Source of the DNA: an uncultured Gammaproteobacteria bacterium
GTDB taxonomy: Bacteria; Patescibacteriota; Microgenomatia; Levybacterales; UBA12049
Direction: 5' to 3'
Length of the DNA: 64,000 bases
NCBI GenBank assembly: GCA_964521295.1
Contig: CAZFRF010000001.1
Coordinates: 705,016-769,015, forward strand
The notes under the pieces were generated by a model. The model worked only from the letters and a program-made list of their open reading frames with translations. It ran no database searches and was not told the origin of the DNA. Of this stretch, positions 9,170 through 55,876 are shown in pieces; the first letter of the stretch is position 1, and every line of letters begins with the position of its first letter. Made by a program: the position numbers and the translations under genes.

Positions 9170-9604
9170 TTATTTTGAAGAGATTGATAGGTTTTGCAAG
9201 TCTTCTTTTGTTAGATCAAGAGGCTTTAAGAAGGTTTCAAGGTCGCCATCTGCTTGCTGAGGATTGCTAGCATCAAGAGTAAGGTTAAAACTGTCTGTTT
9301 CATATTCATAACTTAGCTCAAAAAATACCCCTTTATGCGGCAATTTTAGCAGAAGACTTCCCAGGTTTCTTTCTTTTTTTGTTTCTTCTACTTCTTGGTT
9401 GGTAAAGTCAACAGAGCTATTTTGATTTGGGACGCTGTTAGGGTTTGTTTGAATCTCTACGCTGGTTGGGGTAGGGAGCGAGGGGTTTTTTGACAAAATA
9501 GGATTATTTGACTGCGAGTTAAAGAATATTAATATCATTAATATTAAATAGACAATTACAATAGTCGAAGCGATAATTAAGAATTTTTTGTTAATATTTA
9601 TCAT
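9170..9604 (-). CDS. Small single-pass membrane or secreted protein, hypothetical, at the last position of the T4SS-like operon
   Basis: N-terminal TM, then a Pro/Ser/Asn-rich segment. No recognisable domain. Confidence 0.3.
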   Translation of the reverse strand: MININKKFLIIASTIVIVYLILMILIFFNSQSNNPILSKNPSLPTPTSVEIQTNPNSVPNQNSSVDFTNQEVEETKKERNLGSLLLKLPHKGVFFELSYEYETDSFNLTLDASNPQQADGDLETFLKPLDLTKEDLQNLSISSK

Positions 9605-10356
9605 TTTAATTTAACTGGAACTAAAGACATAAACGTGGTTCCTTTTCTATTCAAAGCAGGGATTGTTGTGGAGAATTTCCAGCCATTGCCTTGCTCATAG
9701 CAATCGCTTGGGGAAGCAGTAATGATTTTGTCTGTTGCTGGATCAGCGTCTACTATAACAAAGGTGTGAGCGCAAGAATTGCAACCAATCCAGTTCTTGG
9801 TAGAGGCAAGTATATACCAGCCCGCATTCGTAAAGCTACGAATCTGCATAATATCGGTGTGGGTTAAGGGTTTACCATCAACGGTATATTCACCCATGAT
9901 ATCCATTTGAGCTCTTTTGAGACCAACCGAGGAGAGAAAGCTTGGTTCAGTCATTTTTCGAGGACTAGATCCAACGCAGTCAATCCCCCCAGTACAGCTG
10001 CGGTTTCCCGGAAACCAAGCGATGCCCTTTTCTTCAAAAAGCCTAGATACAGTAACCGGGTTAGCTATGTTTGCATCAGATTGCTTTGCTTTTAGGCCAT
10101 ATGTCGCAAGAACCATAGCTACGCTTGATGGTCCACAACCAGAGCTTGCTATTGTGCCCGAATCGTATTTATTTGAATAATTAGACTGACAGTAAAATTT
10201 GAAATCTCCGTCTGCGTTTCCGCCAGAGCCGATGATAATTTCAAGGTCGGAAGATTGTGCAAAAACACGTTGAATAAGAAAAGCAGAGGAAAGGATTACT
10301 CCAACCAGGAATAGTATGGTAAAGACAGCAATTTTGTTTTTCATATTATCTGCCAC
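9601..10356 (-). CDS. Secreted peptidase C39-like (Peptidase_C39_2/CHAP-like papain-fold) protein, a putative cell-wall hydrolase of the T4SS-like locus
   Basis: Signal peptide, then SSGCGPSSVAMVLATYG, which closely matches the catalytic-Cys motif of the C39_2 family. A His-containing downstream motif (CAHTFVIV) follows. Confidence 0.5.
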   Translation of the reverse strand: MADNMKNKIAVFTILFLVGVILSSAFLIQRVFAQSSDLEIIIGSGGNADGDFKFYCQSNYSNKYDSGTIASSGCGPSSVAMVLATYGLKAKQSDANIANPVTVSRLFEEKGIAWFPGNRSCTGGIDCVGSSPRKMTEPSFLSSVGLKRAQMDIMGEYTVDGKPLTHTDIMQIRSFTNAGWYILASTKNWIGCNSCAHTFVIVDADPATDKIITASPSDCYEQGNGWKFSTTIPALNRKGTTFMSLVPVKLK

Positions 10357-11746
10357 TAATGGCTGGACAGCTATTATTACAATTATATCTTATATAGCTG
10401 CAGCTTGAAGCTTTATTGTTTTTTTCGCAAGTCCTTTGCTTCTCCCAGAGTTTTGCACATACGGGTTGGTCTTTGTATTTTTTAGTTCCGCACATGCATC
10501 TTGCGGTTCCCCAGTATTCAAAACTGTTGTCTTGTTGCTTGTTGGTCCAGATTGCATTTTGAATTTGTCTTTGCCATGTAACATCTCCTCTGTAGGAAAG
10601 CTTCTTCCAAGGCTGACCAGGGGGATTATTGCTGCACATTTGAAATCTTCCCCAAGTTCCTAGCGCAGCGCAGTTTCCGCTGGAATTATGATTTCCGGCA
10701 TCATGTCCATTTGGACTACCAGATTCGCAGTCTGCAAGATCAGACCAAAAGTCAACCATGGAGTCAGTAATTGGCTTATTTAAAGTATCTGCTATTACTT
10801 GCTTAAATTTTTTTTCTGTGTAGGTGCATTCAGGGTCGCCAAAATTTGCTGGTTTAAGTTGCTCTTTGAAAGGCGAAAGCTTGGTGTCTACCTCAATGAT
10901 GTTCATTATTCCACCATACTTATTGCAGGTCTTATCTGAAGGAGGGCTATCCATACCAGAGTACAGATCTCCTTCGGTGGTATCTATGTCATCGGTTGCC
11001 GTTACATCACCAAACCCACTTAACTTAAGAGAGACAGTTGTTGTTCCGTTCTTAACGCCAGGAGCAATTTTGTCAGAAATTGAGATTAAATAACTGTTGC
11101 CTGGACCCTTTTGTAGGGTACTTAGTTTCCAGCCATATCTAAATTGATTTTTAGCGCTAATTATTCCTCCAGAAGAAAGACTGTCGTATGCGGGATTTGT
11201 GCTATTTTTAGTTAAACTACTAAAGAACGCGGTGTTAATCGTGATATATACCCAGGCTTTATTTGGATCTACCTTTATTTTACTTTTATCAGCAAACACA
11301 AAGGCATACACGGTTATGTTTAAATTTCCTGTTTTGTTGTCTAGTACAGGGCAGTTCGTTCGAGAAGAGCTGCTGCAGCTAAGATATGCGTATCCACCAT
11401 TGAAGGTGAGTATTTTGGGTAGATTGGACGGAGGATTGTTTTGCGAGGATTCTGTTGTTTGTTGGGTAGTGCCTAATCCTCCTCCGCCGCCAAGTATGCT
11501 TAATAGCAGGGTGGTTACAAATAGAGCTACAAATACCCCTATTACTCCCCAAACCGCTGGAGAAAGTCCTGAGACAAGCGATTGAACGGTCTGTGCAGTA
11601 GAGTAAGCTCTTTGAGTGCTTTTAACAAATCTCCAGGCATTTCGTGCTTGTTTGGCTCTGTTGAGATTTTGTTCTAAAAACGATTTGTCATTTTGATTAG
11701 AGCCTTTATCTTCCTGAGCGTTTATTTTTATCTCATCGTCTTGCAT
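10346..11746 (-). CDS. Membrane-anchored protein with a C-terminal lysozyme-like/SLT (GH23-like) motif, a VirB1-like lytic transglycosylase candidate
   Basis: Cytoplasmic N-terminus, one TM followed by a Gly run, and a large Cys-rich ectodomain. CESGSPNGHDAGNHNSSGNCAALGTWGRFQM resembles the ES-x-NP...S-x-GA-x-GLMQ catalytic signature of SLT domains. Confidence 0.4.
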   Translation of the reverse strand: MQDDEIKINAQEDKGSNQNDKSFLEQNLNRAKQARNAWRFVKSTQRAYSTAQTVQSLVSGLSPAVWGVIGVFVALFVTTLLLSILGGGGGLGTTQQTTESSQNNPPSNLPKILTFNGGYAYLSCSSSSRTNCPVLDNKTGNLNITVYAFVFADKSKIKVDPNKAWVYITINTAFFSSLTKNSTNPAYDSLSSGGIISAKNQFRYGWKLSTLQKGPGNSYLISISDKIAPGVKNGTTTVSLKLSGFGDVTATDDIDTTEGDLYSGMDSPPSDKTCNKYGGIMNIIEVDTKLSPFKEQLKPANFGDPECTYTEKKFKQVIADTLNKPITDSMVDFWSDLADCESGSPNGHDAGNHNSSGNCAALGTWGRFQMCSNNPPGQPWKKLSYRGDVTWQRQIQNAIWTNKQQDNSFEYWGTARCMCGTKKYKDQPVCAKLWEKQRTCEKNNKASSCSYIRYNCNNSCPAISGR

Positions 11747-11748
11747 TG

Positions 11749-13530
11749 TTAAGCCTCCTTATTTTTCAGTATTTCTTGCGGGTTTGACGTAATCATTTCA
11801 TGCTCAAAAGGAGCTGCTACGATTTGTATGGCTACATGATTTTGTCCTGCGAAAAACAACCCTTCTCCAATATTGGCAGAGAGAAGTAGTTCTTTTTCAC
11901 CTTGAGTTAAGTAAAACACGTCTGAAACTAGGTCAATTTCTGATGGACTTTGCTTTAAAATCATTTGGATAGAAGAGTTAGACAAAACAGCCTTTCCATA
12001 GTCTGTGGAAAGGAAGTCCTGAACGTCCTGTGTGGCAGTAGTAAGCCCCAGGTAGTACTTTCTCGATCTTTTGGCAATAGAATACACAAATGAGGCAGAG
12101 TCTTCATATTTCATCATGTACCAGGCCTCATCTAGTATTAATAACCTTTTTTTTAGATCTTTTCTAACCTTTGTCCAAACAAAGTCTAAGATTATATGCA
12201 TCGCAATTGGCCTTAACTCCTCTTCTAGTCCGCGCAGGTTAAAAACGGTGAAGGGGTTAGAGATGTCAAAGTTTGACTGTTGGTTAAAAATCCCGGACAA
12301 AGAACCCTTGATAAATTTTTCAAGCATTAGGGCGAGTTCTTTGGCTTTTTCTTCTTCCATCCCAAGCAAGACTTTGTATAGATCCTCCATGATTGGCGGC
12401 GTCCTCTTTTGGGTGGATGGTTCAACCGTAATGCCTTTTTGCCTATATGTTTCAACAAGCGCTCTATCTAGTATTGCATCGTGGGCTGGGTCTAGTTTGC
12501 CTAGAACTATTTTTAATAATCCATGGAGACTAAGTATTTTGAGCCCCAGTTCGTTTTCGCCCTCTTCGTAGAGACCGGTTAAATCAAAGGGGTTAATTTT
12601 AATAGCCGATGAGGCATTAAAGCTAACTTGTTCTCCGCCTAGGGTCTGAGCTAATTTTTCATACTCTCCTTCGGGATCGATGATTATGACTTCTGTTCCA
12701 AAGATAAACTGGCGCATTGCTTCAAGTTTAATTAAGTAAGATTTTCCGGATCCAGATTTGCCGAGAACAACCTCGTTGGCATTTTCTAGGCTAAATCTGT
12801 CAAAGATAATTAAGGATCCGTTTTGTTGATTTATTCCATACATTATTCCTCTATCTTGAGTAAGGGTTGCAGATGTAAAAGGAAAAGTAGACGCAAGTGA
12901 GGTCGTGTCCATATTGTGGGTAATCAATAGTTTATCTGATGCAATTGGAATTGAAGACTTAAACCCATCCTCCATTTGTAACGTGGCAGTTTTGGATAAA
13001 AGGAGGAGGGAGCTAAGCGTTGAATTTAGATTTTTTGACGCTTCGTGTAGTTCCTCTAATGAATCAGATGCAAGGGATACGTATAGGCTAACCTGGAAAA
13101 ATCTTTCCATCCCTTTTGCTAATTCTTCTTGTACGCTAAGCGCGTCTTCCAACGATGCTTGAACAGTAGGGTTTGTCTCTAATCCTTCTTCCTCGTCGGA
13201 GGCAAGGGTCGCTTCCATTTCAGCAATTTTTCTTCTTAAATCAGATAAAACATCTGGCGTCGAGGAGGGGTAGATGAACATAGAGACGTTCATTGAATGA
13301 TCAAAGTTTATTAGTGGTGCAAGCCAGTTTGGATTAACATACCTTGGGTAGCCTGCTATAAACAAAGTTTTGTGAACCTTTTCTCCTACTCGAATATTGT
13401 TGAAATCAACCTCAACAGATGAAGGGGCAATAATATCTGGGATTGAGTTTGTCCCTCTTTGTAGCGCTTGGAGTCGAGGATCTGTTACGACCTGATTTGT
13501 TTCTTTATTTTGCTTTTTTTTGCCAAACAT
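11749..13530 (-). CDS. VirB4/TrbE/CagE-family T4SS ATPase (C-terminal ATPase domain)
   Basis: Walker A GKSGSGKS and Walker B LLILDEAW. The DEAW motif is characteristic of VirB4. Confidence 0.8.
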   Translation of the reverse strand: MFGKKKQNKETNQVVTDPRLQALQRGTNSIPDIIAPSSVEVDFNNIRVGEKVHKTLFIAGYPRYVNPNWLAPLINFDHSMNVSMFIYPSSTPDVLSDLRRKIAEMEATLASDEEEGLETNPTVQASLEDALSVQEELAKGMERFFQVSLYVSLASDSLEELHEASKNLNSTLSSLLLLSKTATLQMEDGFKSSIPIASDKLLITHNMDTTSLASTFPFTSATLTQDRGIMYGINQQNGSLIIFDRFSLENANEVVLGKSGSGKSYLIKLEAMRQFIFGTEVIIIDPEGEYEKLAQTLGGEQVSFNASSAIKINPFDLTGLYEEGENELGLKILSLHGLLKIVLGKLDPAHDAILDRALVETYRQKGITVEPSTQKRTPPIMEDLYKVLLGMEEEKAKELALMLEKFIKGSLSGIFNQQSNFDISNPFTVFNLRGLEEELRPIAMHIILDFVWTKVRKDLKKRLLILDEAWYMMKYEDSASFVYSIAKRSRKYYLGLTTATQDVQDFLSTDYGKAVLSNSSIQMILKQSPSEIDLVSDVFYLTQGEKELLLSANIGEGLFFAGQNHVAIQIVAAPFEHEMITSNPQEILKNKEA

Positions 13531-14183
13531 TATTTTACCTCCTTTCCTTTTACAATCGCCTTACCCTCTGTTTCATGTTTGGGGGTAAGGGACATCTCAT
13601 TGAAAATGTCATAATAGAGCTTTATTAGCTTATTTCGATCTAATATTTCCGATTTTAAGCCAATTCGTCCAAGTTGATTTCGAACGGTTTCTGCTTTAGA
13701 TCTTAAAACAGGCCCTGCTTGTTTGGAAAACTCTTCTAGAGCGCTAAGTCCAGCTACTTGCTTTGCTCCAAACACGCCTTTTTCTAAAGAAGAATAGGGA
13801 ACAACAATATAAAAGTTCTTGTCTAGTACGGAATTAACCTTAATTAGTTCTGCGACAAAATTTCTATACATCTGAATATGCTGAGAGAAGTTAGGGTTAA
13901 GTGTTTTTCTGGCCTCTTCGGTTAGCGCGTCCAGATAGCTTGAGATATTTAAAAGCTTGCTTCTTACAACTATTTGAATAGAAAAAGAAAGAGAGTTTAA
14001 CAGAGCTGAGTATGCATAGATTTTGGCATTTTGTTCTTGTTCCGATAGTAAATCGAAGTTAGTTGCTTCTACTTTTATTACCATGCAGGCGTTTCCGCCT
14101 GGAAGCACAACTACGTCATCAAATATATCTTGAATCTCAATAAATTTTTGGGTTGAGTTTGGTTTTATGCTTGCTTTGCCCAT
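13530..14183 (-). CDS. Hypothetical 217 aa soluble protein translationally coupled to VirB4. It is probably the detached N-terminal domain of VirB4.
   Basis: Its stop overlaps the VirB4 ATG (TAATG). 217 + 593 = 810 aa, the canonical VirB4 size. No TM. Confidence 0.35.
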   Translation of the reverse strand: MGKASIKPNSTQKFIEIQDIFDDVVVLPGGNACMVIKVEATNFDLLSEQEQNAKIYAYSALLNSLSFSIQIVVRSKLLNISSYLDALTEEARKTLNPNFSQHIQMYRNFVAELIKVNSVLDKNFYIVVPYSSLEKGVFGAKQVAGLSALEEFSKQAGPVLRSKAETVRNQLGRIGLKSEILDRNKLIKLYYDIFNEMSLTPKHETEGKAIVKGKEVK

Positions 14184-15361
14184 TAGTTAAAAAGAGACCT
14201 CCTTAGCTCTTCTCTTTGATCGGTAGAGATAACCTCAATAGGCATAATTACTTCTCCTTTGGTTTCAAATGCAACAGAGTCAAATCGATTTTGTCCTTTT
14301 GGATCCTCAAAACTAATGGTATATTTCCCATTGTTAAGAGCTGTGGCTGAGGCAAAATGTCCTAGGGCATTAGTTTTAAAAGCTCTTACAGCGTTTCCTT
14401 CTTCATCTTTAACCTCGACTAAAACATTAGCTAAGGGGTTTCCCCTAGGATCTTTAATGATTCCCGTAAGTAAGTTGGGGAATTCAGGGACACTTGGAAG
14501 TCCTACACTTTGGCTCATTGAATGAGGAATACTTCTTACAAATTTAGTCTCTTTTGCAGGAGCAGTCGTAGCAGTAGAAGGAGTAAAAACAGGCGAGCTT
14601 GAGCTATTCATATTTTTTTGAATCTCAATTAGTTTTTTCTCTAATTCTTCTTTTTGAGTTAGCATCTCATTCATTTGTTTTTGCAATTCCAAGACCTTTT
14701 GATGTGCGTCTAAAAGAGCTTGGGGATCAGCTTGGGCCTGTTTTTGTTCATTTACCTTTGCTTGAGCAAGCTCTTTTTCGAGTAAAGCAGCTGTTTTAAT
14801 TAATTCTTGGTTTTCTTCTGGCGCTTTAATTTTCTCTGGAGCTTGGGAAGAAGGCATTGGTTGGGCCACGGGTTGTCCTTGCCTAGCGTAGTAGTGCGAG
14901 GGAATACTGTTGGGAACGTTAATGTTGGAAGTTTGAGCTGAATATGCATTTAGATTTTGAAAAAATACAGATTCTTTTTGATCTAGTTTATTTTTTGGCT
15001 TATTTTTTATAAAGTTTTTAAACTGTTGGCTAGCTAGGGCATTTGGGTCTTCTTGTTTTGCCCATAGGCTTGCTCCCTGTTTTTGATATATATATTGAGT
15101 TGGGCTAAACACGGCTTTAAAAAAATGGGCAATCATTAAGTCTAAAGGCCGCCCAGATACTTGTAAAAAGGCAAAGCCTGCGCCAATTGCTCCAAAAGCT
15201 ATAGCTAAAGGAGCCTTGATAACAAAAGGCAAGGGCAAGATGTATGTAATCCAACCAATAATAGCCCCAGCTGCAATATAGGCAAACTGCTTTACCGTCA
15301 TGTCTCCAATTAGCTTGAATTGAAAACCTGTAATGTCTTGTGGAATAGGATGATTTTCCAT
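14183..15361 (-). CDS. Two-TM, VirB3-like membrane protein fused to a long coiled coil and a C-terminal CarboxypepD_reg-like beta-sandwich domain
   Basis: Two N-terminal TM helices lie directly upstream of VirB4, the usual VirB3 position. A Gln/Glu/Lys-rich coiled coil follows. The C-terminal region GIIKDPRGNPLANVLVEVKDEEGNAVRAFKTNALGHFASATALNNGKYTISFEDPKG matches the CarboxypepD_reg pattern. Confidence 0.4.
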   Translation of the reverse strand: MENHPIPQDITGFQFKLIGDMTVKQFAYIAAGAIIGWITYILPLPFVIKAPLAIAFGAIGAGFAFLQVSGRPLDLMIAHFFKAVFSPTQYIYQKQGASLWAKQEDPNALASQQFKNFIKNKPKNKLDQKESVFFQNLNAYSAQTSNINVPNSIPSHYYARQGQPVAQPMPSSQAPEKIKAPEENQELIKTAALLEKELAQAKVNEQKQAQADPQALLDAHQKVLELQKQMNEMLTQKEELEKKLIEIQKNMNSSSSPVFTPSTATTAPAKETKFVRSIPHSMSQSVGLPSVPEFPNLLTGIIKDPRGNPLANVLVEVKDEEGNAVRAFKTNALGHFASATALNNGKYTISFEDPKGQNRFDSVAFETKGEVIMPIEVISTDQREELRRSLFN

Positions 15362-15463: not shown

Positions 15464-15784
15464 CTATTTAAAGGAAAAATTATCTAAACCAGAAACTCCA
15501 GTTATGCGACCAATTAAATTGACGATAGCAAAAGAAGCAAAAATTAAAATCAGCCCAAGTAGAGAGTAGAGGAAGGTTTTTCTTGCAGAGTCAATGGATT
15601 TTGAATCTCCTCCTGAATTGATAAATTTAATTCCTGAATAAATTATCATAAATAGAGCAATAGTTCCTGCGCCAGCAAGTAGCCAATTTACAGCTAGGGC
15701 TATTAAATCAGGAATACAAGTAAGGTTGGGGATACCATGTCCTCTGCCTGCCATTTGAGTGCAAGACCAATCCATCTTAAACAT
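15464..15784 (-). CDS. VirB2/TrbC-like T4SS pilin (two-TM hairpin), paralog 1
   Basis: 106 aa. A hydrophobic helix, then the loop YSGIKFINSGGDSKSIDSARKTF, then a second helix. The same architecture is seen in the three neighbours. Confidence 0.5.
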   Translation of the reverse strand: MFKMDWSCTQMAGRGHGIPNLTCIPDLIALAVNWLLAGAGTIALFMIIYSGIKFINSGGDSKSIDSARKTFLYSLLGLILIFASFAIVNLIGRITGVSGLDNFSFK

Positions 15785-15828
15785 AATAAATATACAATAT
15801 CATTCCTAAGTAGTTTTAACAATAGATT

Positions 15829-16251
15829 TTAACGGCCGATTGATGGAAGGACAAAGAAGTTTGCTGTTTGTCCAGGAATAAAGAATCCAAGTAAGATATT
15901 CAATATAAAGTAGGATAAGAATATTATGACTAAGCCAATTACGGCTGCAATAATATGCTCTCTCGCTGCTCCAACTGCAGATTTGTCTCCACCTGAGGTT
16001 AACCATTTAAATCCACCCCAGATTAGGTAGAAAAGAGCAACAATTATTGAGATAACAAAGATAAAAGAAATGATTGCTGGAATAGCATTACTAACGGAGA
16101 ATCCACATAAAGGATTAAATTGCCCAGCTGGGCAAAGCTCAACTCTGGTTGCTCCTGCTGGAACAGTTGGGGTAGGGGTAGCCGCCATTGCTACGTTAGC
16201 TAATAATAAATATGCTGGCGTTAGGACTGAGGTAGATAATAATTTTTTCAT
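15829..16251 (-). CDS. VirB2-like T4SS pilin with signal peptide, paralog 2
   Basis: Signal peptide ending AMA, a Cys pair in the N-terminal segment, and the core LYLIWGGFKWLTSGGDKSAVGAAREHII between two TM helices. Confidence 0.5.
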   Translation of the reverse strand: MKKLLSTSVLTPAYLLLANVAMAATPTPTVPAGATRVELCPAGQFNPLCGFSVSNAIPAIISFIFVISIIVALFYLIWGGFKWLTSGGDKSAVGAAREHIIAAVIGLVIIFLSYFILNILLGFFIPGQTANFFVLPSIGR

Positions 16252-16294
16252 GTATATATTTAGACTAAACAGTTTTTAAATAATTGTCAAGAGT

Positions 16295-16810
16295 CTATTT
16301 ACAGCTATATGCAATAGCTCCGCCGGTAACGTTAGATGCTTGACATGTTTGTCCTGCGTTACAGCATTTTGGTCCACAAGCAAACTTTGACCCTGTACAT
16401 GTTGCACCGCTTGTTGTGCTATTCGTTATTGAGGGTATGGTAAAGTTGCTCAAACTAAAGCCTGGGATAAAGAAGTTTATTACAATATTTAGGATTAAAT
16501 AAGATAAAAAGATAACAATAAGGCCAATGATTGATGCAATAATATGCTCTCTCGCTGCTCCAACTGCAGATTTGTCTCCACCTGAGGTTAACCATTTAAA
16601 TCCTCCCCAGATTAAATAAAGCAGGGCAACAATTGTTGAGAGAACGAAGATAAAGTTTATAAAACTAGCTATAAGTTTCGCAGGGTCTCCCGCTGCATTA
16701 CAGATTACACCAAAGCTTCCAGTTGGGCATAATGTGCTAGCTGCAAAAACAGGAGAGGTTAATCCAAAAAAGCTGAAGGAAAAGATAAGGCCTGTGAGTA
16801 GTTTTTTCAC
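16295..16810 (-). CDS. VirB2-like T4SS pilin with signal peptide and a C-terminal Cys-rich extension, paralog 3
   Basis: Its core is identical to paralog 2. The 16541-16610 nt stretch is nearly identical to 15951-16020. It adds a tail with 7 Cys. Confidence 0.5.
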   Translation of the reverse strand: MKKLLTGLIFSFSFFGLTSPVFAASTLCPTGSFGVICNAAGDPAKLIASFINFIFVLSTIVALLYLIWGGFKWLTSGGDKSAVGAAREHIIASIIGLIVIFLSYLILNIVINFFIPGFSLSNFTIPSITNSTTSGATCTGSKFACGPKCCNAGQTCQASNVTGGAIAYSCK

Positions 16811-16851
16811 CTTAAATAAATCTTAGGCACAATTTACTGGTTTGTCAAGTC

Positions 16852-17199
16852 CTAGGGTAGTTTTAGTAAGTTTACCCCAAAATAGACGCCTAAAATATTT
16901 AGTATAAAGTAGGAAATAAAAACAATTACTAATCCTACAATCGTAAATCCGATTCTTTGTCTTGCCTGTTGAACTTTTTGCTTGTCTCCAGCGGAGGTCA
17001 TCCATTGCCAGCCTGAGTAAATTAATATTATTAATCCAAAAACAATAGCAAAGAGCGTGATAAATGCAAGGCCTGTTTTAATTGCCTTAATTAAAGTATC
17101 AAGTCCTCCCGTCGGCATACCACTTACACTTTGAACCTTTATTGGTTGCTTATCTGGGCCCATTATTGAGAGCGCAATTAGTTTCATGTTATTTTCCAA
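16852..17199 (-). CDS. VirB2-like T4SS pilin, paralog 4
   Basis: Core motif IYSGWQWMTSAGDKQKVQQARQRI flanked by two TM helices. Confidence 0.45.
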   Translation of the reverse strand: MENNMKLIALSIMGPDKQPIKVQSVSGMPTGGLDTLIKAIKTGLAFITLFAIVFGLIILIYSGWQWMTSAGDKQKVQQARQRIGFTIVGLVIVFISYFILNILGVYFGVNLLKLP

Positions 17200-18379
17200 A
17201 TCCAGGCAATCTTAGTATGTCATATCCAATAGTTTGTAATATCACTAAGGAAAAGATTGTAAAAAGAAGACCGATAATGGCAGCGGTTAGTTGGTCTTTC
17301 GCTCCTTGTATTTTTTCAGGATTTCCCTGCGAAACCATGAGTCTGTAGCCTGAAAAAATAATTAAAATAGTGGCAATTCCGCCAATGACGCCAAATAAAA
17401 TTCCCATTAAAGTTTTTATAAACTCTCCAGGTCCACCTGTAAAGTTTATTTTTATGCCTAGGCCTGTTTGTATTTGGCAATTCTTATTTTTTACCTGATC
17501 TTCGCTACAAATGGGGGTAGGCGTGTTGTATCTGTATTTTGGACTTTCAAATGTAATTGCGGATTTAACAACAGAGCACTTTTCCTGTCTATCGTTAGCG
17601 CATCTGCATTCGTAGTTGCTGCATACGCTGGTGGATTTTCCGCAGGTACCGGAGGTTATGCATCCTTTTAGACATTTTCCTGATATGCAGGCATCTCCTA
17701 ATGATCCTCCCGTTTGGCAGTAGTAGCCAGAAGCGCAATTTCCTCTAGGCTTAGAGTTGCCTGCTCCGTTTTGACTGCACATGTTGTAGTCTTCGGAGTC
17801 TGGAGTGATCCTGCAATCTTGATTATTTCCTTGTCCATCTCCTGGGGGAGGCTTGGGCTCCGAGCCATCTGAATTATTAATAGTTAGGCTGCTTTTGCAG
17901 ATAGCAAATCCTTCGTCATCGCAGGTTGCTGGAGACGTGTTTTGTCCAAATACAGCATTGCAGAGCTTAAGAGTGTATTTGCCGCTTTTAAGAGTGTTAA
18001 TGTCTTGTAGGGTGTCTGTACGGAAAACCAAAGGCTCCCCAGATTGCTTGTCTTCCACCCACGTTGCACATCCTAAGCCAAACTGATCTGACAGGTTGGG
18101 GTTTGGAGTGCAAAACTCCCCGGTAGCATCCCCAATGATAACTGCGAAGTACTGGTTTCCATTAGAATCATTATCCGAAATATTGTTAAAAGTAAGCTCT
18201 TTAACAGATCCTGGATTTATTTTGGAGTTTTTAGTATTAGGGTTAAAAGAAAAAGAGCATTCGCTTATTGCAAGAGCCTGATCTTTTAAAACAAAGAATA
18301 GGCAAGAAACAAAAAAGAATAATAAAAAAATTTTTCTTAACACCTTTTTATCGTAACGCAACAATGAGGTAAATTTCAA
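17189..18379 (-). CDS. Large secreted Cys-rich protein with a C-terminal VirB2-like pilin module, a putative pilus-associated adhesin or minor pilin
   Basis: Signal peptide, then about 300 aa with more than 30 Cys. The C-terminal 75 aa (IFSGYRLMVSQGNPEKIQGAKDQLTAAIIGLLFTIFSLVIL) repeat the pilin hairpin architecture. Confidence 0.45.
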   Translation of the reverse strand: MKFTSLLRYDKKVLRKIFLLFFFVSCLFFVLKDQALAISECSFSFNPNTKNSKINPGSVKELTFNNISDNDSNGNQYFAVIIGDATGEFCTPNPNLSDQFGLGCATWVEDKQSGEPLVFRTDTLQDINTLKSGKYTLKLCNAVFGQNTSPATCDDEGFAICKSSLTINNSDGSEPKPPPGDGQGNNQDCRITPDSEDYNMCSQNGAGNSKPRGNCASGYYCQTGGSLGDACISGKCLKGCITSGTCGKSTSVCSNYECRCANDRQEKCSVVKSAITFESPKYRYNTPTPICSEDQVKNKNCQIQTGLGIKINFTGGPGEFIKTLMGILFGVIGGIATILIIFSGYRLMVSQGNPEKIQGAKDQLTAAIIGLLFTIFSLVILQTIGYDILRLPGFGK

Positions 18380-19769: not shown

Positions 19770-22700
19770 ATGAGAGTAGAGATATATAGAAGATTAAATC
19801 AAGCTAATCCAGAATTGACAATAGGCTCAGTTAAACCTAAACTGGAATCAGGAGATATTTTTATGGCAAAAGTAGATGGTGGTGGAGAGCAGCCAGGTCA
19901 AATTCCAGAGAAAAAAATAACACAAGAAATTGTTCCTCCTCAGGGTAGAGTTGGAAGGGCAAGGCGGGCATTGAGTTCTCGAGCAGAGCCTCCTCGAATT
20001 GCCCATGCATTGCTGGATGATCCATCAGAGCCAATTGTGCCCCCCGTCGCTCCCTTGTCTAGTCCAGATATTCCCGTAATTCCCGACGAAGCTCCAGGGG
20101 TTCCAGAGCATGGAGCCCCTATCCCAGCAGCTCCCGAAGAGGGATCTATTCCAGAGCAAATAAGGTTAGCTTGGGAATCGGCAGTACCAATTTCTGATCA
20201 AGCATCTGAGACCGAAAGAAAAGTAAGAGATGTAATTATAGAGGCGGCAGTGCTAAGAGGGTTTAGTCCCGTGGATCAAGCGGAGACTGTCAGAAGATTA
20301 AAAAGTTATTTAAGAACTAAGCAGACAGGAAGAGAGGCGGGTTTTGATGAGATTCCAGAAAATGAAGAGAGAATAACTAAAGAAGTACTTAAGGAAATAA
20401 TCAAAGTTATGACGAGTGGATTTAGCTTTACCGAAGAGGAGCTCGATGCTTACTCCGGTATGATAGAAAGTCTTGATACTAATGCCCCTGATTATGTAGA
20501 GAGAGCAAAAAAAATAATTCAAGTAATCCATTCTAAGCAAGAAGAATACGCAATTGATGAAGATACTAATTTGAACGAGGAGCAGGGAGAGGAAGGTTTT
20601 TATGAAGAGTCTGCAGAGGGACGATCTCAAATTGAGGGTGAAGAGCGGGTCTCACTTTTCGATGGTGTTTATAGAGCTCTGGATGCGTTAGAGGATGCTC
20701 CAGATGATGCAACGAGAGAGAGTATGGAGAGAGGAATACGCAGGGCTTTAGCTACGGACTTAACGGTTAATGGCGCATTAATTGAATCTTCTGCAGTCAG
20801 GCCCGGGGAAGGTGTAAGGTTAAGGAATGGAAGATGGGTTCATCCAGAAGATTACGAAAGATATAGGGCAACTTGGGCAAGTATAACAGCAGATCCGAAC
20901 CTTGATTCTATGCGCGCAAGGGCAAAGAAATTTATTAATGAACTAGAATTCAAGCTAGACGAGAGGGGTCGAGAGGTTGCCGGAGACAGAATTCAAAACG
21001 TTCAAGATCTTGCAAAATTTATTGTTACAAAACAAAATGCTGAAATATATGGAGTAGGTAAGAGGTTTGAGCTTGTAGATTCTGAAGGAAATTTTCATCC
21101 AGAAAACTTTTTAATTTGGCTTAGGGAACAATCAATTGCAATTCATAACGATAACAAGAATGATCAGCTTAGTCCATTGACATCTGTAGTTATTGAAACC
21201 ACATTCAGAACCATTTCTATTTATATGATGACACGTTTTAGAGAGCAGTATTTTAGAGATAAAAAAAGCGGCGAGGTTATGCATGATCTCGCAAATAGGG
21301 TTCTGATGGAGGCTTTTATGTTTGGAGTTTTCAGAAATTCAGATATTGCATATAGGTCAGTTATGGGTGAGGACAAAAGATTACCTGAGGCTTTGCCGCA
21401 AATTCATTCCAGAAATGATTTGACCAGTTCAGACAATTGGCAATATATGCTAAATGCTCCAGCTGAATTTGGCACTGAACATGATATGCGAGTTGGCGAA
21501 GCTGTAATGTTTTGTAACGATTTTTATTACAACATTTCAGATAAAGAGGAATTAATTAAGCTATTGGGCGACCGCCCGATTACAAGGCAAGATTTTGAAG
21601 ATGCTTTATTGCTACTTAGCGGTAAACATGAATGGGAACGAGACCAAATTAAATTTGATGCTCATTTTGATCCTGAGGATCCAAATGGACCTTTTTATCT
21701 AAACGATGATAAACAAAGAGTTTATTTCTTTATGGACTCTAATGGACAAATGCAAGACACTGTAAATATTGATGCTTTTATTGATGGGTTAAATACCTTC
21801 AATATGGCAACGCCTAAGACTAGCACGGTAAATTTATTAAGGGAAATTGTAAGAGTTAAAGCGGCTCAGAAGTATGGGTTAAACGATGGAATAGCTAGGG
21901 GAGAAAAAGCAGAAGAGAAAAAAAGACAGTATGACGAGGCAGTTGCGCGTCATAAAGTCATTCTGAGAAGAATTACTCGAGATGGTCAAGAACTGAGTCA
22001 AGCTGAAATTGATAGAAGAGCAAAAGATAGGGCAAACTCAGAATTTAAAAAGGAACAGAGCGCAGACAGAACAAATCTTGAATATGCTGAAACAACCTCT
22101 TGGATTTTTCAAAGACCCTATGGAATTGCAGCTAGAAACGATACTTTACGAAGGGGCTTTGATGCAGCGACGAAATTATATTTATATGACTATATTCTTA
22201 GGCAATCAAAAGAAGGAACTGGTGGTCCGATAGGTATTCCAGAAATGATGGGAATCTTTAGGCTTTTGAGCCCAGATCTAGTAGAGGGTTTACTTACTGA
22301 GTCAGGGGTTAGTCCAAGACAGTTAATGCTTCAAATTAGAGAGGTAGATTTGATGCCAGGAGGTACCCCAGAGCAAGAAGCTGAGAAAGCTAAGAAAAAA
22401 GCAGAAATATTGTCACATTTAAGATTTGCTGAAAGAGCTGAGATGGATTTCACATCAAACCAGCAATCTAGAGGATTTCAAATATACCATTCCTTCACGG
22501 AAGGAGATGATCTTGATTTACACGATGTTATAACCCATAGCTTCTGGGAAGGAATAAAAGTAAAACTGAGTAAGGCCGAAGAGGTTGTAAAAGATAAATG
22601 GATGAAGCCTGTGAGATATTTGCTTTCTTCAAATAATGCTTTGAATTTTGCTGCAAAAGCAAGAATGCTAGATTTTGTTAAAACGGGTAAATTAAAGCCT

Positions 22701-23303
22701 GCAGCAGCTCCAGAGGCTATTGTTCAAGAAAGAAATGCTTTAAATCAGCAAAGAGTGAAGGAAGGTAAGGCTACATTGCCACAGGTGGCAATGCCCAAGC
22801 CTGCTCCTATATATTCTACGGTTACTCTTGCTGAAAAAATGCTGAGTCCGGATGTTACAGACAGGGATTATATATCAGATGACGGTAAGGTAATAAAGAT
22901 TAGGGAGGCTTTAATGGACCCGGCAAAATATGAGCAAAATAGAGCCAATGTTAGAAAGGCATTAGCAAAAAATGCCATTACAACAAGAATAGCATTCGTT
23001 TTGAAATTTCATAGAGAATTGTATGGATTAGGAGAAAGATGGGGCTATGAAAGAGTTCAGGCGCTTTACCATTATCTTCACAGAATAAGAGAATGGGAGC
23101 CAGTTGAGGGTAAGCCAGGTCGGGTAAAGGAAAATCCCGAAAAGGGTTTTTTCTCTCACCATGATCTAGAATGGATGAGAGGGCTTAGTAATACTAAAGA
23201 GTATAATATGATCATGGAAGAGCTTGGTAAGCAAGGTGGCGTAGCAGCTCTTGGCGCAGGAAAAGATGCATTGTCAGCGTTTATACAAGCTATATTAAAA
23301 TAA
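19770..23303 (+). CDS. Large (1177 aa) acidic hydrophilic protein with a proline-rich N-terminal region and no TM or recognisable catalytic motif. Hypothetical, possibly a T4SS substrate.
   Basis: Long uninterrupted ORF. PxxP-rich tract near residues 60-130. No Walker motifs and no His-triad relaxase motif were seen. Local GC is above the window average. Confidence 0.4.
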   Translation: MRVEIYRRLNQANPELTIGSVKPKLESGDIFMAKVDGGGEQPGQIPEKKITQEIVPPQGRVGRARRALSSRAEPPRIAHALLDDPSEPIVPPVAPLSSPDIPVIPDEAPGVPEHGAPIPAAPEEGSIPEQIRLAWESAVPISDQASETERKVRDVIIEAAVLRGFSPVDQAETVRRLKSYLRTKQTGREAGFDEIPENEERITKEVLKEIIKVMTSGFSFTEEELDAYSGMIESLDTNAPDYVERAKKIIQVIHSKQEEYAIDEDTNLNEEQGEEGFYEESAEGRSQIEGEERVSLFDGVYRALDALEDAPDDATRESMERGIRRALATDLTVNGALIESSAVRPGEGVRLRNGRWVHPEDYERYRATWASITADPNLDSMRARAKKFINELEFKLDERGREVAGDRIQNVQDLAKFIVTKQNAEIYGVGKRFELVDSEGNFHPENFLIWLREQSIAIHNDNKNDQLSPLTSVVIETTFRTISIYMMTRFREQYFRDKKSGEVMHDLANRVLMEAFMFGVFRNSDIAYRSVMGEDKRLPEALPQIHSRNDLTSSDNWQYMLNAPAEFGTEHDMRVGEAVMFCNDFYYNISDKEELIKLLGDRPITRQDFEDALLLLSGKHEWERDQIKFDAHFDPEDPNGPFYLNDDKQRVYFFMDSNGQMQDTVNIDAFIDGLNTFNMATPKTSTVNLLREIVRVKAAQKYGLNDGIARGEKAEEKKRQYDEAVARHKVILRRITRDGQELSQAEIDRRAKDRANSEFKKEQSADRTNLEYAETTSWIFQRPYGIAARNDTLRRGFDAATKLYLYDYILRQSKEGTGGPIGIPEMMGIFRLLSPDLVEGLLTESGVSPRQLMLQIREVDLMPGGTPEQEAEKAKKKAEILSHLRFAERAEMDFTSNQQSRGFQIYHSFTEGDDLDLHDVITHSFWEGIKVKLSKAEEVVKDKWMKPVRYLLSSNNALNFAAKARMLDFVKTGKLKPAAAPEAIVQERNALNQQRVKEGKATLPQVAMPKPAPIYSTVTLAEKMLSPDVTDRDYISDDGKVIKIREALMDPAKYEQNRANVRKALAKNAITTRIAFVLKFHRELYGLGERWGYERVQALYHYLHRIREWEPVEGKPGRVKENPEKGFFSHHDLEWMRGLSNTKEYNMIMEELGKQGGVAALGAGKDALSAFIQAILK

Positions 23304-25228: not shown

Positions 25229-25301
25229 GTGCCCGTAGTTCAACGGATAGAACACCTGGTTGCGGTCCAGGCGGTTGGAGGTTCAATTCCTCTCGGGCAT
25301 A
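25229..25301 (+). tRNA. tRNA-Arg, anticodon GCG
   Basis: Hand-folded cloverleaf: acceptor GTGCCCG/CGGGCAT, D stem GTTC/GAAC, anticodon stem CCTGG/CCAGG, loop TTGCGGT, T arm GGAGG-TTCAATT-CCTCT. Confidence 0.6.
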
Positions 25302-25302
25302 C

Positions 25303-25386
25303 GGAGGGTTCGCATAGTGGCCAATTGCACGAGTTTCGAAAACTCGAGGACTTAGTCCTCCGCAGGTTCGAATCCTGCACCCTCCG
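25303..25386 (+). tRNA. tRNA-Ser, anticodon CGA (class II, long variable arm)
   Basis: Acceptor GGAGGGT/ACCCTCC, anticodon stem-loop CGAGT-TTCGAAA-ACTCG, T arm GCAGG-TTCGAAT-CCTGC, discriminator G. Confidence 0.65.
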
Positions 25387-25395
25387 CTTTTACTT

Positions 25396-25833
25396 ATGCT
25401 ACAGACAAAACAAATGAAAATTCAAATTAGCGCTGGTGGGGTGGTATATAAAAGAGAAAAAGGTGATTTGTATATTTTAGTTTCCCAACATTCTGGTCAT
25501 CATGGTTGGGTTTTTCCCAAGGGTTTAATAGGGGACAAAGTTGAAAACGAAGATAAGGAGACAACAGCTTTAAGGGAAGTTAGGGAAGAGACTGGTGTTA
25601 ATGGAAAAATTATTCAACCTTTAAAACCAGTAGTTTTTTGGTTTGTAATGGATGGGGTAAAAATTAAAAAAACAGTCCATTACTTTCTAATGGAATATGT
25701 CTCGGGAGAAATTACAGATCATGACTGGGAAATGGAAAATGTAGAATGGCTAGAAGAGTCAAAAATATTAGAGCGCTTAACTTATCCTTCAGATAAAAAA
25801 GTTTGGCTGGAGGCACAAAAACTCCTTAGTTAA
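25396..25833 (+). CDS. NUDIX hydrolase
   Basis: Nudix box G...ETTALREVREETGV. Confidence 0.75.
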   Translation: MLQTKQMKIQISAGGVVYKREKGDLYILVSQHSGHHGWVFPKGLIGDKVENEDKETTALREVREETGVNGKIIQPLKPVVFWFVMDGVKIKKTVHYFLMEYVSGEITDHDWEMENVEWLEESKILERLTYPSDKKVWLEAQKLLS

Positions 25834-25851
25834 TGTTATAATACTTCTCGT

Positions 25852-25941
25852 GGAGAGATCGCATAGTGGCCTAGTGCGTTCGCTTGGAAAGCGGATGTTG
25901 TCGTGAGACAACCGGGAGTTCGAATCTCCCTCTCTCCGCCA
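25852..25941 (+). tRNA. tRNA-Ser, anticodon GGA, with encoded CCA
   Basis: Acceptor GGAGAGA/TCTCTCC, anticodon loop TTGGAAA, long variable arm, T arm GGGAG-TTCGAAT-CTCCC, G73 then CCA. Confidence 0.65.
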
Positions 25942-26496: not shown

Positions 26497-26584
26497 CGGA
26501 GAGGGCGAGATTCGAACTCGCGAAGAGCAAAAAACTCTTAGCGGTTTTCAAGACCGCCGCACTAGTCCACTATGCGACCTCTCC
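26497..26584 (-). tRNA. tRNA-Ser, anticodon TGA
   Basis: Reverse complement folds as acceptor GGAGAGG/CCTCTCC, anticodon stem-loop GCGGT-CTTGAAA-ACCGC, long variable arm, T arm GCGAG-TTCGAAT-CTCGC. Confidence 0.6.
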
Positions 26585-28464: not shown

Positions 28465-28552
28465 TGGCGGAGAAGGTGGGATTCGAACCCACGAAATCTT
28501 GCGATTTGGCGGTTTAGTAAACCGCTACACTAGGCCACTATGTGACTTCTCC
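28465..28552 (-). tRNA. Class II Ser-type tRNA with apparent anticodon ACT (A34)
   Basis: Reverse complement is GGAGAAGTCACATAGTGGCCTAGTGTAGCGGTTTACTAAACCGCCAAATCGCAAGATTTCGTGGGTTCGAATCCCACCTTCTCCGCCA. Perfect anticodon stem GCGGT/ACCGC with loop TTACTAA, G73, and encoded CCA. Confidence 0.5.
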
Positions 28553-28568
28553 AATTGTTGTGTTTGTG

Positions 28569-28653
28569 CGGAGGGTACAGGATTCGAACCTGTGGGCGGC
28601 TATTCACCGCCACGGCTTAGCAAGCCGCTCTATTACCACTCTAGCAACCCTCC
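28569..28653 (-). tRNA. tRNA-Ser, anticodon GCT
   Basis: Reverse complement is GGAGGGTTGCTAGAGTGGTAATAGAGCGGCTTGCTAAGCCGTGGCGGTGAATAGCCGCCCACAGGTTCGAATCCTGTACCCTCCGCA. Anticodon loop TTGCTAA, long variable arm. Confidence 0.6.
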
Positions 28654-29919: not shown

Positions 29920-29945
29920 AAACCGCCTTGCGGCGGTTTATTTGT
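29919..29945. terminator. Bidirectional rho-independent terminator between comF and the tmRNA 3' end
   Basis: Hairpin AACCGCC-TTG-CGGCGGTT is followed by a T-run on the plus strand and by TTTTTATTTT on the minus strand. Confidence 0.6.
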
Positions 29946-30306
29946 GGAGATGTCCGAGAGTGACTCGGAGTCCAAGAAAGTTTTTTAAAAAATTCTACAA
30001 GCTTAGTTTATTATTTTTTTGATTACTTTACCCGTTAGTAATAAACAACTGTAAGTAAAGCCAAGGTTATAAATTCGAATAAGGTTCTAACCAGTTTCCT
30101 TATTTATTCTTAGGCTAAGTTTGTGCCTAAAATGTCTCACCTAAGAAAAACATTAAAGACAGCTTACTTAAGCGTATAAAGGCTGTGCGTAAGCATAAGC
30201 TGGAGTTTGAGCTCTAGCATTTATTTTTTGACCTGAGTTTACGGCATTAGGTCTTGCCGGCTTGCAGTTTTTAAAGTGCGAATCTTGTCGATGCAATTGC
30301 ATCCCC
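29945..30306 (-). ncRNA. ssrA: tmRNA (ssrA), about 362 nt, adjacent to smpB
   Basis: The minus-strand 5' end GGGGATGCAATTGCATCGACAAG resembles the conserved tmRNA start GGGG.UG...GGAUUCGAC. The 3' end ...CATCTCC-A pairs with the 5' GGGGATG to form a tRNA-like acceptor. An internal AAAAAATAAAT-GCT AGA GCT CAA ACT CCA GCT TAT GCT TAC GCA CAG CCT TTA TAC GCT TAA is a tag-like ORF ending in a stop. It lies immediately beside smpB. Confidence 0.6.
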
Positions 30307-49102: not shown

Positions 49103-49651
49103 ATGTCTATATATACTAAGTTTGGTGATAAAGGTAAGACCTCTTTGTATGGCGGTAAAACCGTTTCTAAAGGCAGCGTTAGAGTAGAAGCTTATGGAAA
49201 CCTAGATGAATTAAATAGCTTCTTAGGAGTCGCTGTAAGTCTTTTAAAAGATAAAGAGGTAAAAAAGGAAATTATCAGTATTCAAAACGATCTATTTGAG
49301 ATTGGATCGTCAATTGCCTCAACTGCAACCAATAAGCATAAGATTTTAGGTGTATATTTGAAGCAAAGAGTTATTGAATTTGAAGAGGAAATTGATAAAA
49401 TAACTAAAAAATTACCAGAGCTTGAAAATTTTATCTTACCAGGAGGCTCAGAAACAGGTTCAAGGTTACATTTTGCTAGAACCATAGCTAGAAGAGCAGA
49501 GAGAAGGATAGTAACTTTAGCTGAAAAAGAAAAAGTTTTATCAGAAGTACTTATTTATTTAAATAGAGTTTCAGATTTGTTATTTATGTACGCAAGACTT
49601 ATAAATTTAAAAGAAAAGAAAAAAGAAATAATTTGGAAAACTAGAGATTAG
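49103..49651 (+). CDS. ATP:cob(I)alamin adenosyltransferase, PduO-type
   Basis: MSIYTKFGDKGKTSL...EAYGNLDELNS is the PduO/MMAB family start. Confidence 0.75.
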   Translation: MSIYTKFGDKGKTSLYGGKTVSKGSVRVEAYGNLDELNSFLGVAVSLLKDKEVKKEIISIQNDLFEIGSSIASTATNKHKILGVYLKQRVIEFEEEIDKITKKLPELENFILPGGSETGSRLHFARTIARRAERRIVTLAEKEKVLSEVLIYLNRVSDLLFMYARLINLKEKKKEIIWKTRD

Positions 49652-49782
49652 TTTTCAACGGGTGAAAGCAGGCGAAAATCCTGCGCTGTGCCGCAACTGT
49701 ATAGTCAGAGCCCCGAATATAAATCTTCCGAGCAGAAGTATGTTTTTTAGCATACAACTTCTCGGAGACGAGGAGTTTTTTT

Positions 49783-54073: not shown

Positions 54074-54145
54074 GCGTCTGTAGCTCAGTGGTAGAGCGCT
54101 ACTCTTATAAAGTAGATGTCCTTGGTCCGATCCCAAGCAGACGCA
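54074..54145 (+). tRNA. tRNA-Ile, anticodon TAT (UAU)
   Basis: Acceptor GCGTCTG/CAGACGC, D arm GCTC-AGTGGTA-GAGC, anticodon stem-loop CTACT-CTTATAA-AGTAG, T arm CTTGG-TCCGATC-CCAAG. Confidence 0.6.
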
Positions 54146-55804: not shown

Positions 55805-55876
55805 TACCAGGGGCGAGGATCGAACTCGCGACCACCGGGATATGAATCCGGAGCTCTACCACTAAGCTACCCTGGC
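55805..55876 (-). tRNA. tRNA with CAT anticodon (elongator Met or Ile2)
   Basis: Reverse complement is GCCAGGGTAGCTTAGTGGTAGAGCTCCGGATTCATATCCCGGTGGTCGCGAGTTCGATCCTCGCCCCTGGTA. Anticodon loop TTCATAT, T arm GCGAG-TTCGATC-CTCGC, G1-U72 wobble. Confidence 0.55.

Follow-up and report, generated by a model that had tools for sequence, protein, structure and literature searches.

Neighbouring type IV secretion system pilin genes of a Levybacteria-like bacterium share an identical core best explained by gene conversion

Why should two neighbouring pilin genes, distinct in their ends, be identical nucleotide for nucleotide across the middle of their shared fold? The question is raised by a 64,000-nucleotide stretch of contig CAZFRF010000001.1 (assembly GCA_964521295.1, positions 705,016 to 769,015), which we call the window (W in comparisons between genomes). 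Here a tandem array of genes for VirB2-like pilins lies beside genes of a type IV secretion system (T4SS). We number the genes p1 to p5 from the low coordinate; all are on the minus strand, and the gene order is p5-p4-p3-p2-p1 (Table 1). The identical tract in p2 and p3 is best explained by recurrent, short-tract, non-reciprocal gene conversion between these two adjacent genes. Taken as a whole, we think it probable that the region is the pilin array of an origin-proximal T4SS, that its paralogues are old, that short-tract conversion accounts for the p2/p3 identity, and that the members divide the labour in the way modelled below. The comparisons draw on six related loci with the same array (L001-L005 and L029), of which L002 is the nearest relative and was used for the comparison of evolutionary rates.

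The original prediction described four tandem pilin paralogs in the interval 15464-17199. Four co-oriented minus-strand open reading frames (ORFs) of 106, 140, 171 and 115 amino acids (aa) do occur there, the last being p4 with a TTG extension, but the array has a fifth member, p5, and its hairpin proteins span 15464-18343. A hidden Markov model (HMM) built from the hairpins and run on all stop-to-stop ORFs of the window returned exactly these five matches, all of them full-length and with start codons. The spacers between the genes are 1, 41, 43 and 44 nucleotides (nt). Translation of p4 most likely starts at ATG 17187 and not at TTG 17199, because the p4 orthologues begin there (MKL…). The two-helix fold that had been proposed as common to the genes was borne out for every member: by a hydropathy scan, every one of the five proteins has two long hydrophobic segments (21-39 and 69-98 in p1), which in p1-p4 are joined by a short loop of the S-G-G-D-K type. 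A common helix-loop-helix block aligns in p1-p4 with the invariant pattern G…S.G…A…GL…S..I, and an AlphaFold2 (AF2) model of p2, made with 37 relatives in the alignment, has helices at residues 53-85 and 90-124 with a predicted local distance difference test score (pLDDT) >90.

The tract common to p2 and p3 runs from late in helix 1 through the loop into the first part of helix 2. The match is exact over 69 nt, or 23 consecutive identical codons, and extends to 80 nt (15946-16025) with one mismatch; the copies are spaced 589 nt start-to-start, and the flanks have only 60-65% identity, or 43-77% when taken in 30-nt windows. Near-identical DNA at about 15951-16020 and 16541-16610 had been predicted, coordinates that prove right to within ~6 nt. 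The identical peptide had been quoted as 27 aa; the run exists and is 28 aa long (YLIWGGFKWLTSGGDKSAVGAAREHIIA; YLIWGG…EHIIA), although the leading L of the quoted version occurs only in p3, where p2 has F. No other pair of paralogues in the array shares an exact match longer than 12 nt. Overall, p2 and p3 are its most similar pair: 59% of aligned aa positions are identical, and a repeat of 194 nt has 81% identity.

A short chance match, named beforehand as the outcome that would undo the claim, is ruled out. Given the codon usage of 35 long ORFs of the window, the chance of 23 coincident codons is 7.7e-10, and the proteins align over the hairpin. Where identical residues are degenerate, the same codon is used in 23 of 26 cases inside the identical peptide versus 14 of 32 in the rest of the hairpin (Fisher p = 7.6e-4).

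Comparison with orthologues points to exchange of DNA within genomes. Within the 69-nt tract, p2 and p3 of the window show no differences, whereas the window p2 differs from its L002 orthologue at four synonymous sites and the window p3 from its own at three. The flanks of the tract show the opposite, with 89-92% identity between orthologues and 62-65% between paralogues. We applied a Sawyer-type permutation test to a 216-nt codon alignment of 12 sequences (133 polymorphic sites, 66 pairs, 5000 permutations). The window p2 and p3 agree at 34 polymorphic sites in succession, a run length reached in 0 of 5000 permutations (p ≤ 2e-4, or ~0.013 corrected for 66 pairs), and the within-genome pairs of W, L003 and L004 take ranks 1, 2 and 4 of the 66.

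The signature recurs in other members of the family, each time in its own form. L029 has a long exact p2/p3 match of 62 nt and L004 one of 113 nt; in the remaining four genomes the matches are 13-32 nt long. In L004 the p2 and p3 hairpins are identical at 94% of DNA positions and 71 of 72 residues, and the proteins at 101 of 132 aa overall. In a tree of the hairpins p2 and p3 are intermingled by lineage, whereas in a tree of the N-terminal segments they stand apart. Certain lineages carry residues of their own that are common to both paralogues: DKT in L001 and L029, GGLKW in L003 and L005, and YLVW in L005. The three marks of concerted evolution, that is, paralogues more similar than orthologues, significance by permutation, and conflict between the trees of tract and flanks, were thus all found. 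Exchange is confined to the hairpin and is usually centred on the loop; the N-terminal Cys-loop segments and the C-terminal tails of the two genes remain distinct. The near-invariant peptide may itself keep the nucleotide sequences similar enough to seed repeated recombination.

Outside the converted core, the five genes evolve at markedly uneven rates. At the DNA level, the window is 84.5% identical to L002 over 10 kb and about 71.6% identical to L001, the two loci compared in this way. The background aa identity to L002 is 90-98% for genes of the locus, a 144-aa gene excepted (79%), and nonsynonymous divergence (dN) for the same genes is 0.015-0.05. The most constrained gene is p2, identical to its L002 orthologue at 139 of 140 aa, with dN = 0.003, the lowest synonymous divergence (dS) of the locus (0.62) and dN/dS = 0.005. 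The aa identities of p1 and p4 are 94% and 83%. p3 has 57% aa identity, 33% in its tail, and dN = 0.41, which by segment is 0.53 in the signal peptide and N-terminal segment, 0.16 in the hairpin and 0.81 in the tail; it is as far from its L002 orthologue as from that of the much more distant L001 (57% vs 54%). In p5, the C-terminal 112 aa are 96% identical and the ectodomain is barely alignable, with 31% identity over aligned columns. Per-codon difference profiles across seven genomes show the variability to be concentrated in the N-terminal segment with its Cys loop and in the tail at the C-terminus. Thus p3 and the p5 ectodomain are hypervariable between species. The original prediction of diversified exposed parts is right about where the variation lies, but not about the near-constant p2; it is p3 and p5 that change fast. 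We make no claim of positive selection, because dS relative to L002 is near saturation (about 1-1.8), and in p3 and the p5 ectodomain it is near saturation or undefined.

The two hypervariable members have unusual appendages. The p3 tail consists of a Ser/Thr/Gly linker and a C-terminal knob with 6 Cys (8 in the whole protein); a Cys-rich tail had been noted beforehand, correctly except for a count of 7. In other genomes the p3 tail is a Ser/Gly-rich linker followed by 0-6 Cys. In p5, a signal or anchor helix is followed by the ectodomain, which is ~280 aa long and rich in Cys (20 Cys), and the pilin hairpin stands at the C-terminus. An AF2 model of p5 made without an alignment has a mean pLDDT of 42, and ~30 in the ectodomain, too low to be informative. 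A word-indexed search of 5.8 billion proteins with the ectodomain matched only itself, and a full HMMER scan found 6 weak relatives; ectodomain relatives include three other pilin fusions (29-33% identity) and two giant multi-repeat proteins, one of them with bacterial Ig-like domains.

So, could the array be a device for antigenic variation? In Neisseria, promoterless silent pilS cassettes donate variable segments to the single pilE expression locus, in a pilin superfamily (type IV pili) that is unrelated to the present one. By analogy, the p2/p3 core would be a homology anchor for shuffling variable segments, or for unequal crossover that yields chimeric or deleted copies. The perfect direct repeat of 69 nt, spaced at 589 nt, has the length that RecA-type recombination requires, p3 and p5 are hypervariable between species in their exposed parts, and host-range versatility has been raised for such arrays by the authors of PMC12102498. 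We nevertheless judge this explanation improbable. All five pilin genes in the window are complete, and truncated or promoterless copies are absent; no variable segment of p2 or p3 occurs a second time, and the other gene pairs offer no exact match beyond the 12 nt given above. Copy number and order are fixed: each of the 7 Levybacteria-type loci has five members (other Microgenomates have 3-12). The check for copy-number variants in related genomes that had been suggested thus found none among these seven. As in pilE/pilS, there is gene conversion between pilin copies, and conserved segments flank variable ones. However, what is exchanged here is the conserved core, and the cassette-type template recombination suggested in the original prediction finds no support in a locus in which that core is the mobile part.

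Convergent identity, which needs no exchange of DNA, is slightly less probable still. Strong purifying selection on the peptide would combine with codon bias or with a nucleotide-level element (such as a structured RNA, a regulatory sequence or a site of recombination) to hold the two copies alike. At the protein level, p2 and p3 of all seven genomes hardly vary over the 28-aa core, and the low dS of p2 may reflect codon selection in a highly expressed gene. Yet the coincidence of 23 codons is far too improbable on codon usage, and the tract nucleotides are not fixed by selection, because orthologues differ synonymously in the same stretch. The RNA fold of the tract is unexceptional (z = -1.04; 26 of 200 shuffles fold equally well or better), and the position and length of the tract vary between genomes (62, 69 and 113 nt).

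Recent tandem duplication, in which the ends of p2 and p3 diverged quickly and the core is the remnant of their original identity, had been offered together with gene conversion in the original prediction; we regard it as very unlikely. It is true that the genes are adjacent and are the most similar pair of the array. However, the same five-gene array, in the same order and with matching sizes (365-509, ~110, 150-174, 130-140 and 104-114 aa, in gene order), is present in all six other genomes, with distinct p2 and p3 orthologues that are recognizable by size, order and tail. Neighbour joining of the 72-aa hairpins places p1, p4 and p5 in clean orthologous clades of their own that all branch internally in the same way, and the N-terminal halves of p2 (signal peptide and Cys loop) from six genomes form one clade apart from p3. 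The duplication that gave rise to p2 and p3 predates the divergence of these lineages, because the hairpin clades and the p2 N-terminal clade span genomes. Each of the five paralogues is therefore old and has its own orthologues throughout the family. At most synonymous sites the flanks of the core differ between p2 and p3, and p2 orthologues differ inside the tract where the paralogues do not. Of the two processes that had been proposed, duplication is thus set aside, and conversion accounts for the identical core. Two further loci, L030 and L031, have p2-like genes at 75-78% identity but in another gene context, and were left out; a metagenome scan with p2 returned only distant relatives (48-55% identity) and no strain-level ones.

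Least likely of all is an assembly or binning artefact in which the reads of one paralogue built both copies: the genome does come from a metagenome-type source, but the 69-nt tract is shorter than ordinary reads and lies inside unique flanks, the contig is a single piece of 936 kb, and independent assemblies of other samples show the same phenomenon with sequences of their own (62 nt in L029, 113 nt in L004).

Are the proteins pilins? All five match the Pfam family PF18895 (T4SS_pilin; cutoff 26.6 bits), four of them above the cutoff: p1 (E = 2.3e-6, 28.0 bits), p2 (E = 9.4e-9, 35.7 bits), p3 (E = 1e-9, 38.8 bits) and p5 (E = 6.6e-9, 36.2 bits, residues 314-383 of the 396-aa ORF). The fifth, p4, falls slightly below it (E = 4.9e-5, 23.8 bits), aligns with the other members and has pilin orthologues. 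The 80-residue NCBIfam model of the Mbov_0395 pilin-like family (NF045849; cutoff 40 bits) aligns with all five over the hairpin at sub-cutoff scores (E = 2.5e-8 to 1e-3, at most 33.5 bits), p4 having E = 2.5e-8. All 37 aligned relatives touch TrbC/VirB2 (PF04956; cutoff 27.9 bits) at E ≤ 1, the best at 1.7e-6; the relation to TrbC/VirB2 proper is, by these profiles, remote and short of membership. Two hydrophobic helices with a short polar loop, as in arrays of the PF18895 type, and tandem pilin genes near virB4 and virB3/prgI, as in Patescibacteria arrays, are both present. With the genes placed directly upstream of those for a VirB3-like protein and VirB4, the earlier annotation as VirB2-like pilins is sound at the level of PF18895.

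If the proteins are pilins, the geometry of known pili suggests what conversion may preserve. In the F and T pilus structures, the loop between the helices faces the cytoplasm while the subunit is in the membrane and the lumen once it is in the polymer, with the termini pointing outward. By analogy, the converted tract would belong to the part of the subunit that faces inward and packs, with the variable parts exposed at the surface. In the model that we propose, p2, the candidate major subunit, would build the T4SS filament or channel. p3 would share the packing and lumen-facing core of p2, so that it could co-assemble while displaying a variable, disulfide-rich knob on the outside. p5, a candidate pilus-anchored adhesin, would anchor its hypervariable, adhesin-like ectodomain through the same hairpin, and p1 and p4 would be conserved minor subunits. 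Conversion would keep the p3 core compatible with that of p2, and selection or allele replacement would diversify the exposed modules, which probably serve in host-cell recognition.

Several points weigh against this overall reading. The Sawyer-type test deals with site-to-site rate variation only through its restriction to polymorphic sites. Because dS is near saturation, diversifying selection is inseparable from allele replacement. p2 itself scores 13.5 bits against PF04956 (E = 0.086), well under the cutoff. A profile of the family run against Protein Data Bank (PDB) sequences retrieved no solved VirB2, TraA or TrbC, and nothing below E = 0.34; a Foldseek search of the PDB with the AF2 model of p2 retrieved only generic helical hairpins, all at E > 1, the two-helix fold being too simple to discriminate. 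The name 'pilin' rests on homology and gene context, and the roles as major subunit, co-assembling partner and adhesin are ones that we infer. To our knowledge, a T4SS pilus has been seen in no bacterium of the candidate phyla radiation (CPR). Even in Saccharibacteria, it is so far no more than possible that such proteins polymerise into a T4SS pilus outside the cell (PMC12857230).

With these points in mind, we offer a bolder version of the model as a tentative and rather doubtful proposal. The five hairpin proteins may form one heteropolymeric T4SS filament in a monoderm CPR bacterium, a modular display scaffold in which the p2 and p3 cores are kept interchangeable by conversion and the p3 knob and p5 ectodomain are quickly replaced or diversified to match host surfaces. 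If true, conversion would be no by-product of adjacency; it would let a fast-evolving receptor-binding pilin stay competent for assembly. The locus offers a division of labour that can be tested, with a constrained p2, a p3 core overwritten from or onto p2, and a p5 with a hypervariable ectodomain. It also points to subunits to seek in filaments and to candidates for host recognition. Southlakia epibionticum cannot do without its pilin series (Wang et al. 2023, PMC10633639; reviewed in PMC12857230); T4SS pilin arrays are among the few gene sets that a cultivated CPR bacterium has been shown to need for its epibiotic life.

Arrays of this type are already known. A survey of Patescibacteria counted 441 VirB2-like arrays, each with 2-11 genes, which are commonest in Microgenomatia and Saccharimonadia and often lie near dnaA (Quiñonero-Coronel et al. 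2025, PMC12102498). Like those, the window array consists of PF18895/TrbC-like two-helix pilins in tandem beside virB3/virB4, on the chromosome and beside dnaA/dnaN. Identity within the published arrays averages 25% and reaches at most 54%, recombination between members is unmentioned, and no adhesins were detected (PMC12102498). In these respects the window array differs: p2 and p3 are 59% identical and share the exact 69-nt tract (101 of 132 aa in L004), p5 has its hypervariable, Cys-rich ectodomain of ~280 aa and p3 its Cys-knob tail. The published generalities thus need a small correction, in that identity within an array can exceed 54% and adhesin-like modules exist, fused to pilins. What is new is the conversion of the p2/p3 core together with the rapid change of exposed parts in two members, and not a new kind of system. 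In the searchable literature we found no account of concerted evolution of two members of a Patescibacteria pilin array, no orthologue-by-orthologue contrast of rates and no pilin-anchored hypervariable ectodomain.

Two Microgenomates loci, L011 (1813-8908) and L014 (1372-8464), each have 12 consecutive ORFs that match the hairpin HMM, against a published maximum of 11; one is labelled Woesebacteria and the other mislabelled Pseudomonadales. Three further array-bearing records of metagenome-assembled genomes (MAGs; L004, L007 and L020) are titled 'uncultured Gammaproteobacteria' or 'Pseudomonadales' and are probably mislabelled or mis-binned Patescibacteria contigs.

Among other secretion systems, a close parallel in the pattern of diversity is found in the tandem virB2 paralogues of Anaplasma phagocytophilum, A. 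marginale and Bartonella, which likewise lie beside virB4 and encode a signal peptide and two hydrophobic helices; in Anaplasma the helices are conserved, and diversity is found before the N-terminal cysteine and near the C-terminus (PMC3556328). Unlike those diderm intracellular animal pathogens, in which copy number is 8-15 depending on strain, the window belongs to a monoderm CPR bacterium with five copies fixed across the family, only 2 of 5 being hypervariable. With TrbC/VirB2/TraA of the F, T and pKM101 pili, the array shares the helix-loop-helix, the short polar, positive loop, the position of the genes upstream of virB3/virB4 and, on three of its members, N-terminal signal-like segments. 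It differs from them in its sub-threshold match to PF04956, its monoderm host and the large N- or C-terminal extensions of p5 and p3, which are unusual for VirB2. The Mbov_0395 family of Mycoplasma integrative and conjugative elements (ICEs) aligns with the hairpin of all five proteins, and both systems are monoderm with a T4SS of the MPF-FATA type; however, the ICEs are mobile and carry one copy, whereas the window holds a chromosomal array of five genes, all with sub-cutoff scores.

Table 1. Coordinates of the pilin array, the tract shared by p2 and p3, and the neighbouring genes in the window
Feature	Coordinates	Strand	Description
p1	15464..15784	-	106 aa; without obvious signal peptide; 2 Cys in N-terminal segment; two-helix hairpin
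p2	15829..16251	-	140 aa; Sec-type signal peptide (…AMA/AT); Cys loop C40-C49; hairpin
p3	16295..16810	-	171 aa; GTG start; signal peptide; Cys loop C28-C37; hairpin; C-terminal tail
p4	16852..17187	-	111 aa; pilin-like; no Cys; ATG 17187 is 1 nt past the p5 stop codon
p5	17189..18343	-	Probable GTG start 18343; ORF 17189-18379 = 396 aa; database entry P0140 = 384 aa
69-nt shared tract, p2 copy	15946..16014	-	p2 codons 80-102, G-F-K-W…H-I-I-A
69-nt shared tract, p3 copy	16535..16603	-	p3 codons 70-92
VirB3/PrgI-like membrane protein	14183..15361	-	Pfam PrgI E = 4e-10; CarboxypepD_reg E = 8.6e-8
Split VirB4, N-terminal part, TrsD/TraC-like	13530..14183	-	217 aa
VirB4-type T4SS ATPase	11749..13530	-	593 aa; NCBIfam conju_CD1110 E = 5.2e-116, 388.7 bits vs 325 cutoff; Pfam P-loop_TraG E = 3e-27
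Three conserved genes, function unassigned	9170..11746	-	466, 251 and 144 aa; one N-terminal hydrophobic segment each; last before dnaN
Regulator with C-terminal OmpR-type winged helix	18381..19739	-	452 aa; Pfam Trans_reg_C E = 5.2e-19; directly upstream of p5

The genes around the array are those of a chromosomal, origin-proximal T4SS. The VirB3/PrgI-like protein has a long low-complexity middle and a C-terminal beta-sandwich of the CarboxypepD_reg / SdrD_B-like type, and is conserved after the array in L001 and L002; a beta-sandwich on a VirB3 homologue is an unusual module of extracellular type. VirB4 appears to be split between two abutting genes, and the same split occurs in L001 and L002. 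The 217-aa part matches NCBIfam VirB4_plasma over residues 100-236 (E = 2.4e-10) and TrsD (E = 8.9e-6), both sub-cutoff, and Pfam TraC-like is recorded for its orthologues. The three conserved genes that follow are also present in L002 (79-91% aa identity). The 466- and 251-aa proteins have no Pfam or NCBIfam match, and the 144-aa protein, scanned with Pfam only, has no Pfam match. After these genes come dnaN, dnaA, rnpA and yidC. At the other end, the position of the regulator is kept in L002 and L029. The nearest named genomes are Candidatus Levybacteria MAGs, and the host is a Levybacteria-like bacterium (Microgenomatia, CPR/Patescibacteria).

A scan for promoters and terminators gave counts that were not above those of shuffled sequence (24 promoter-like sites vs 20.7 ± 3.3 expected). 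One TTGACA-17-TAAGAT site at 16820-16848 (-) ends 9 nt upstream of the p3 GTG start and serves as a lead only. Similar TTGACA or TTGTTA boxes are also visible by eye in the spacers of 43-44 nt that precede p2 and p1, where a Shine-Dalgarno sequence is not obvious. The TTGACA-type boxes before p3, p2 and p1 may be individual promoters with very short leaders.

Divergent from the regulator and pilin operon, a 1177-aa ORF (19770-23303, +) has no Pfam domain and no hydrophobic segment. It is 40% identical in aa sequence to its 1353-aa L002 counterpart, against the background of 90-98%, and a large ORF occupies the same position in L029; this seems to be another hypervariable protein linked with the cluster. 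A 790-aa protein encoded at 51687-54059 (+), some 35 kb from virB4, has the domains of a T4SS coupling protein (TrwB_AAD_bind E = 8e-10, TraG-D_C E = 5e-6); a VirD4-like ATPase is therefore encoded outside the main T4SS cluster. As with the published Patescibacteria arrays, no relaxase turned up near the T4SS cluster, though no search here was aimed at relaxases.

Elsewhere in the window, an AdoCbl-II (adenosylcobalamin) riboswitch at 49651-49720 (+) scores 41.2 bits (cutoff 36.5). It follows genes for a class II-type ribonucleotide reductase (46667-49099) and a cobalamin adenosyltransferase (49103-49651), and lies upstream of a 433-aa ORF without a Pfam match. A tmRNA gene is found at 29942-30306 (-). 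Eight tRNA genes are located at 25229-25938, 26497-26584, 28468-28653, 54074-54145 and 55805-55876, five of which cluster at 25.2-26.6 kb, just past the T4SS region.

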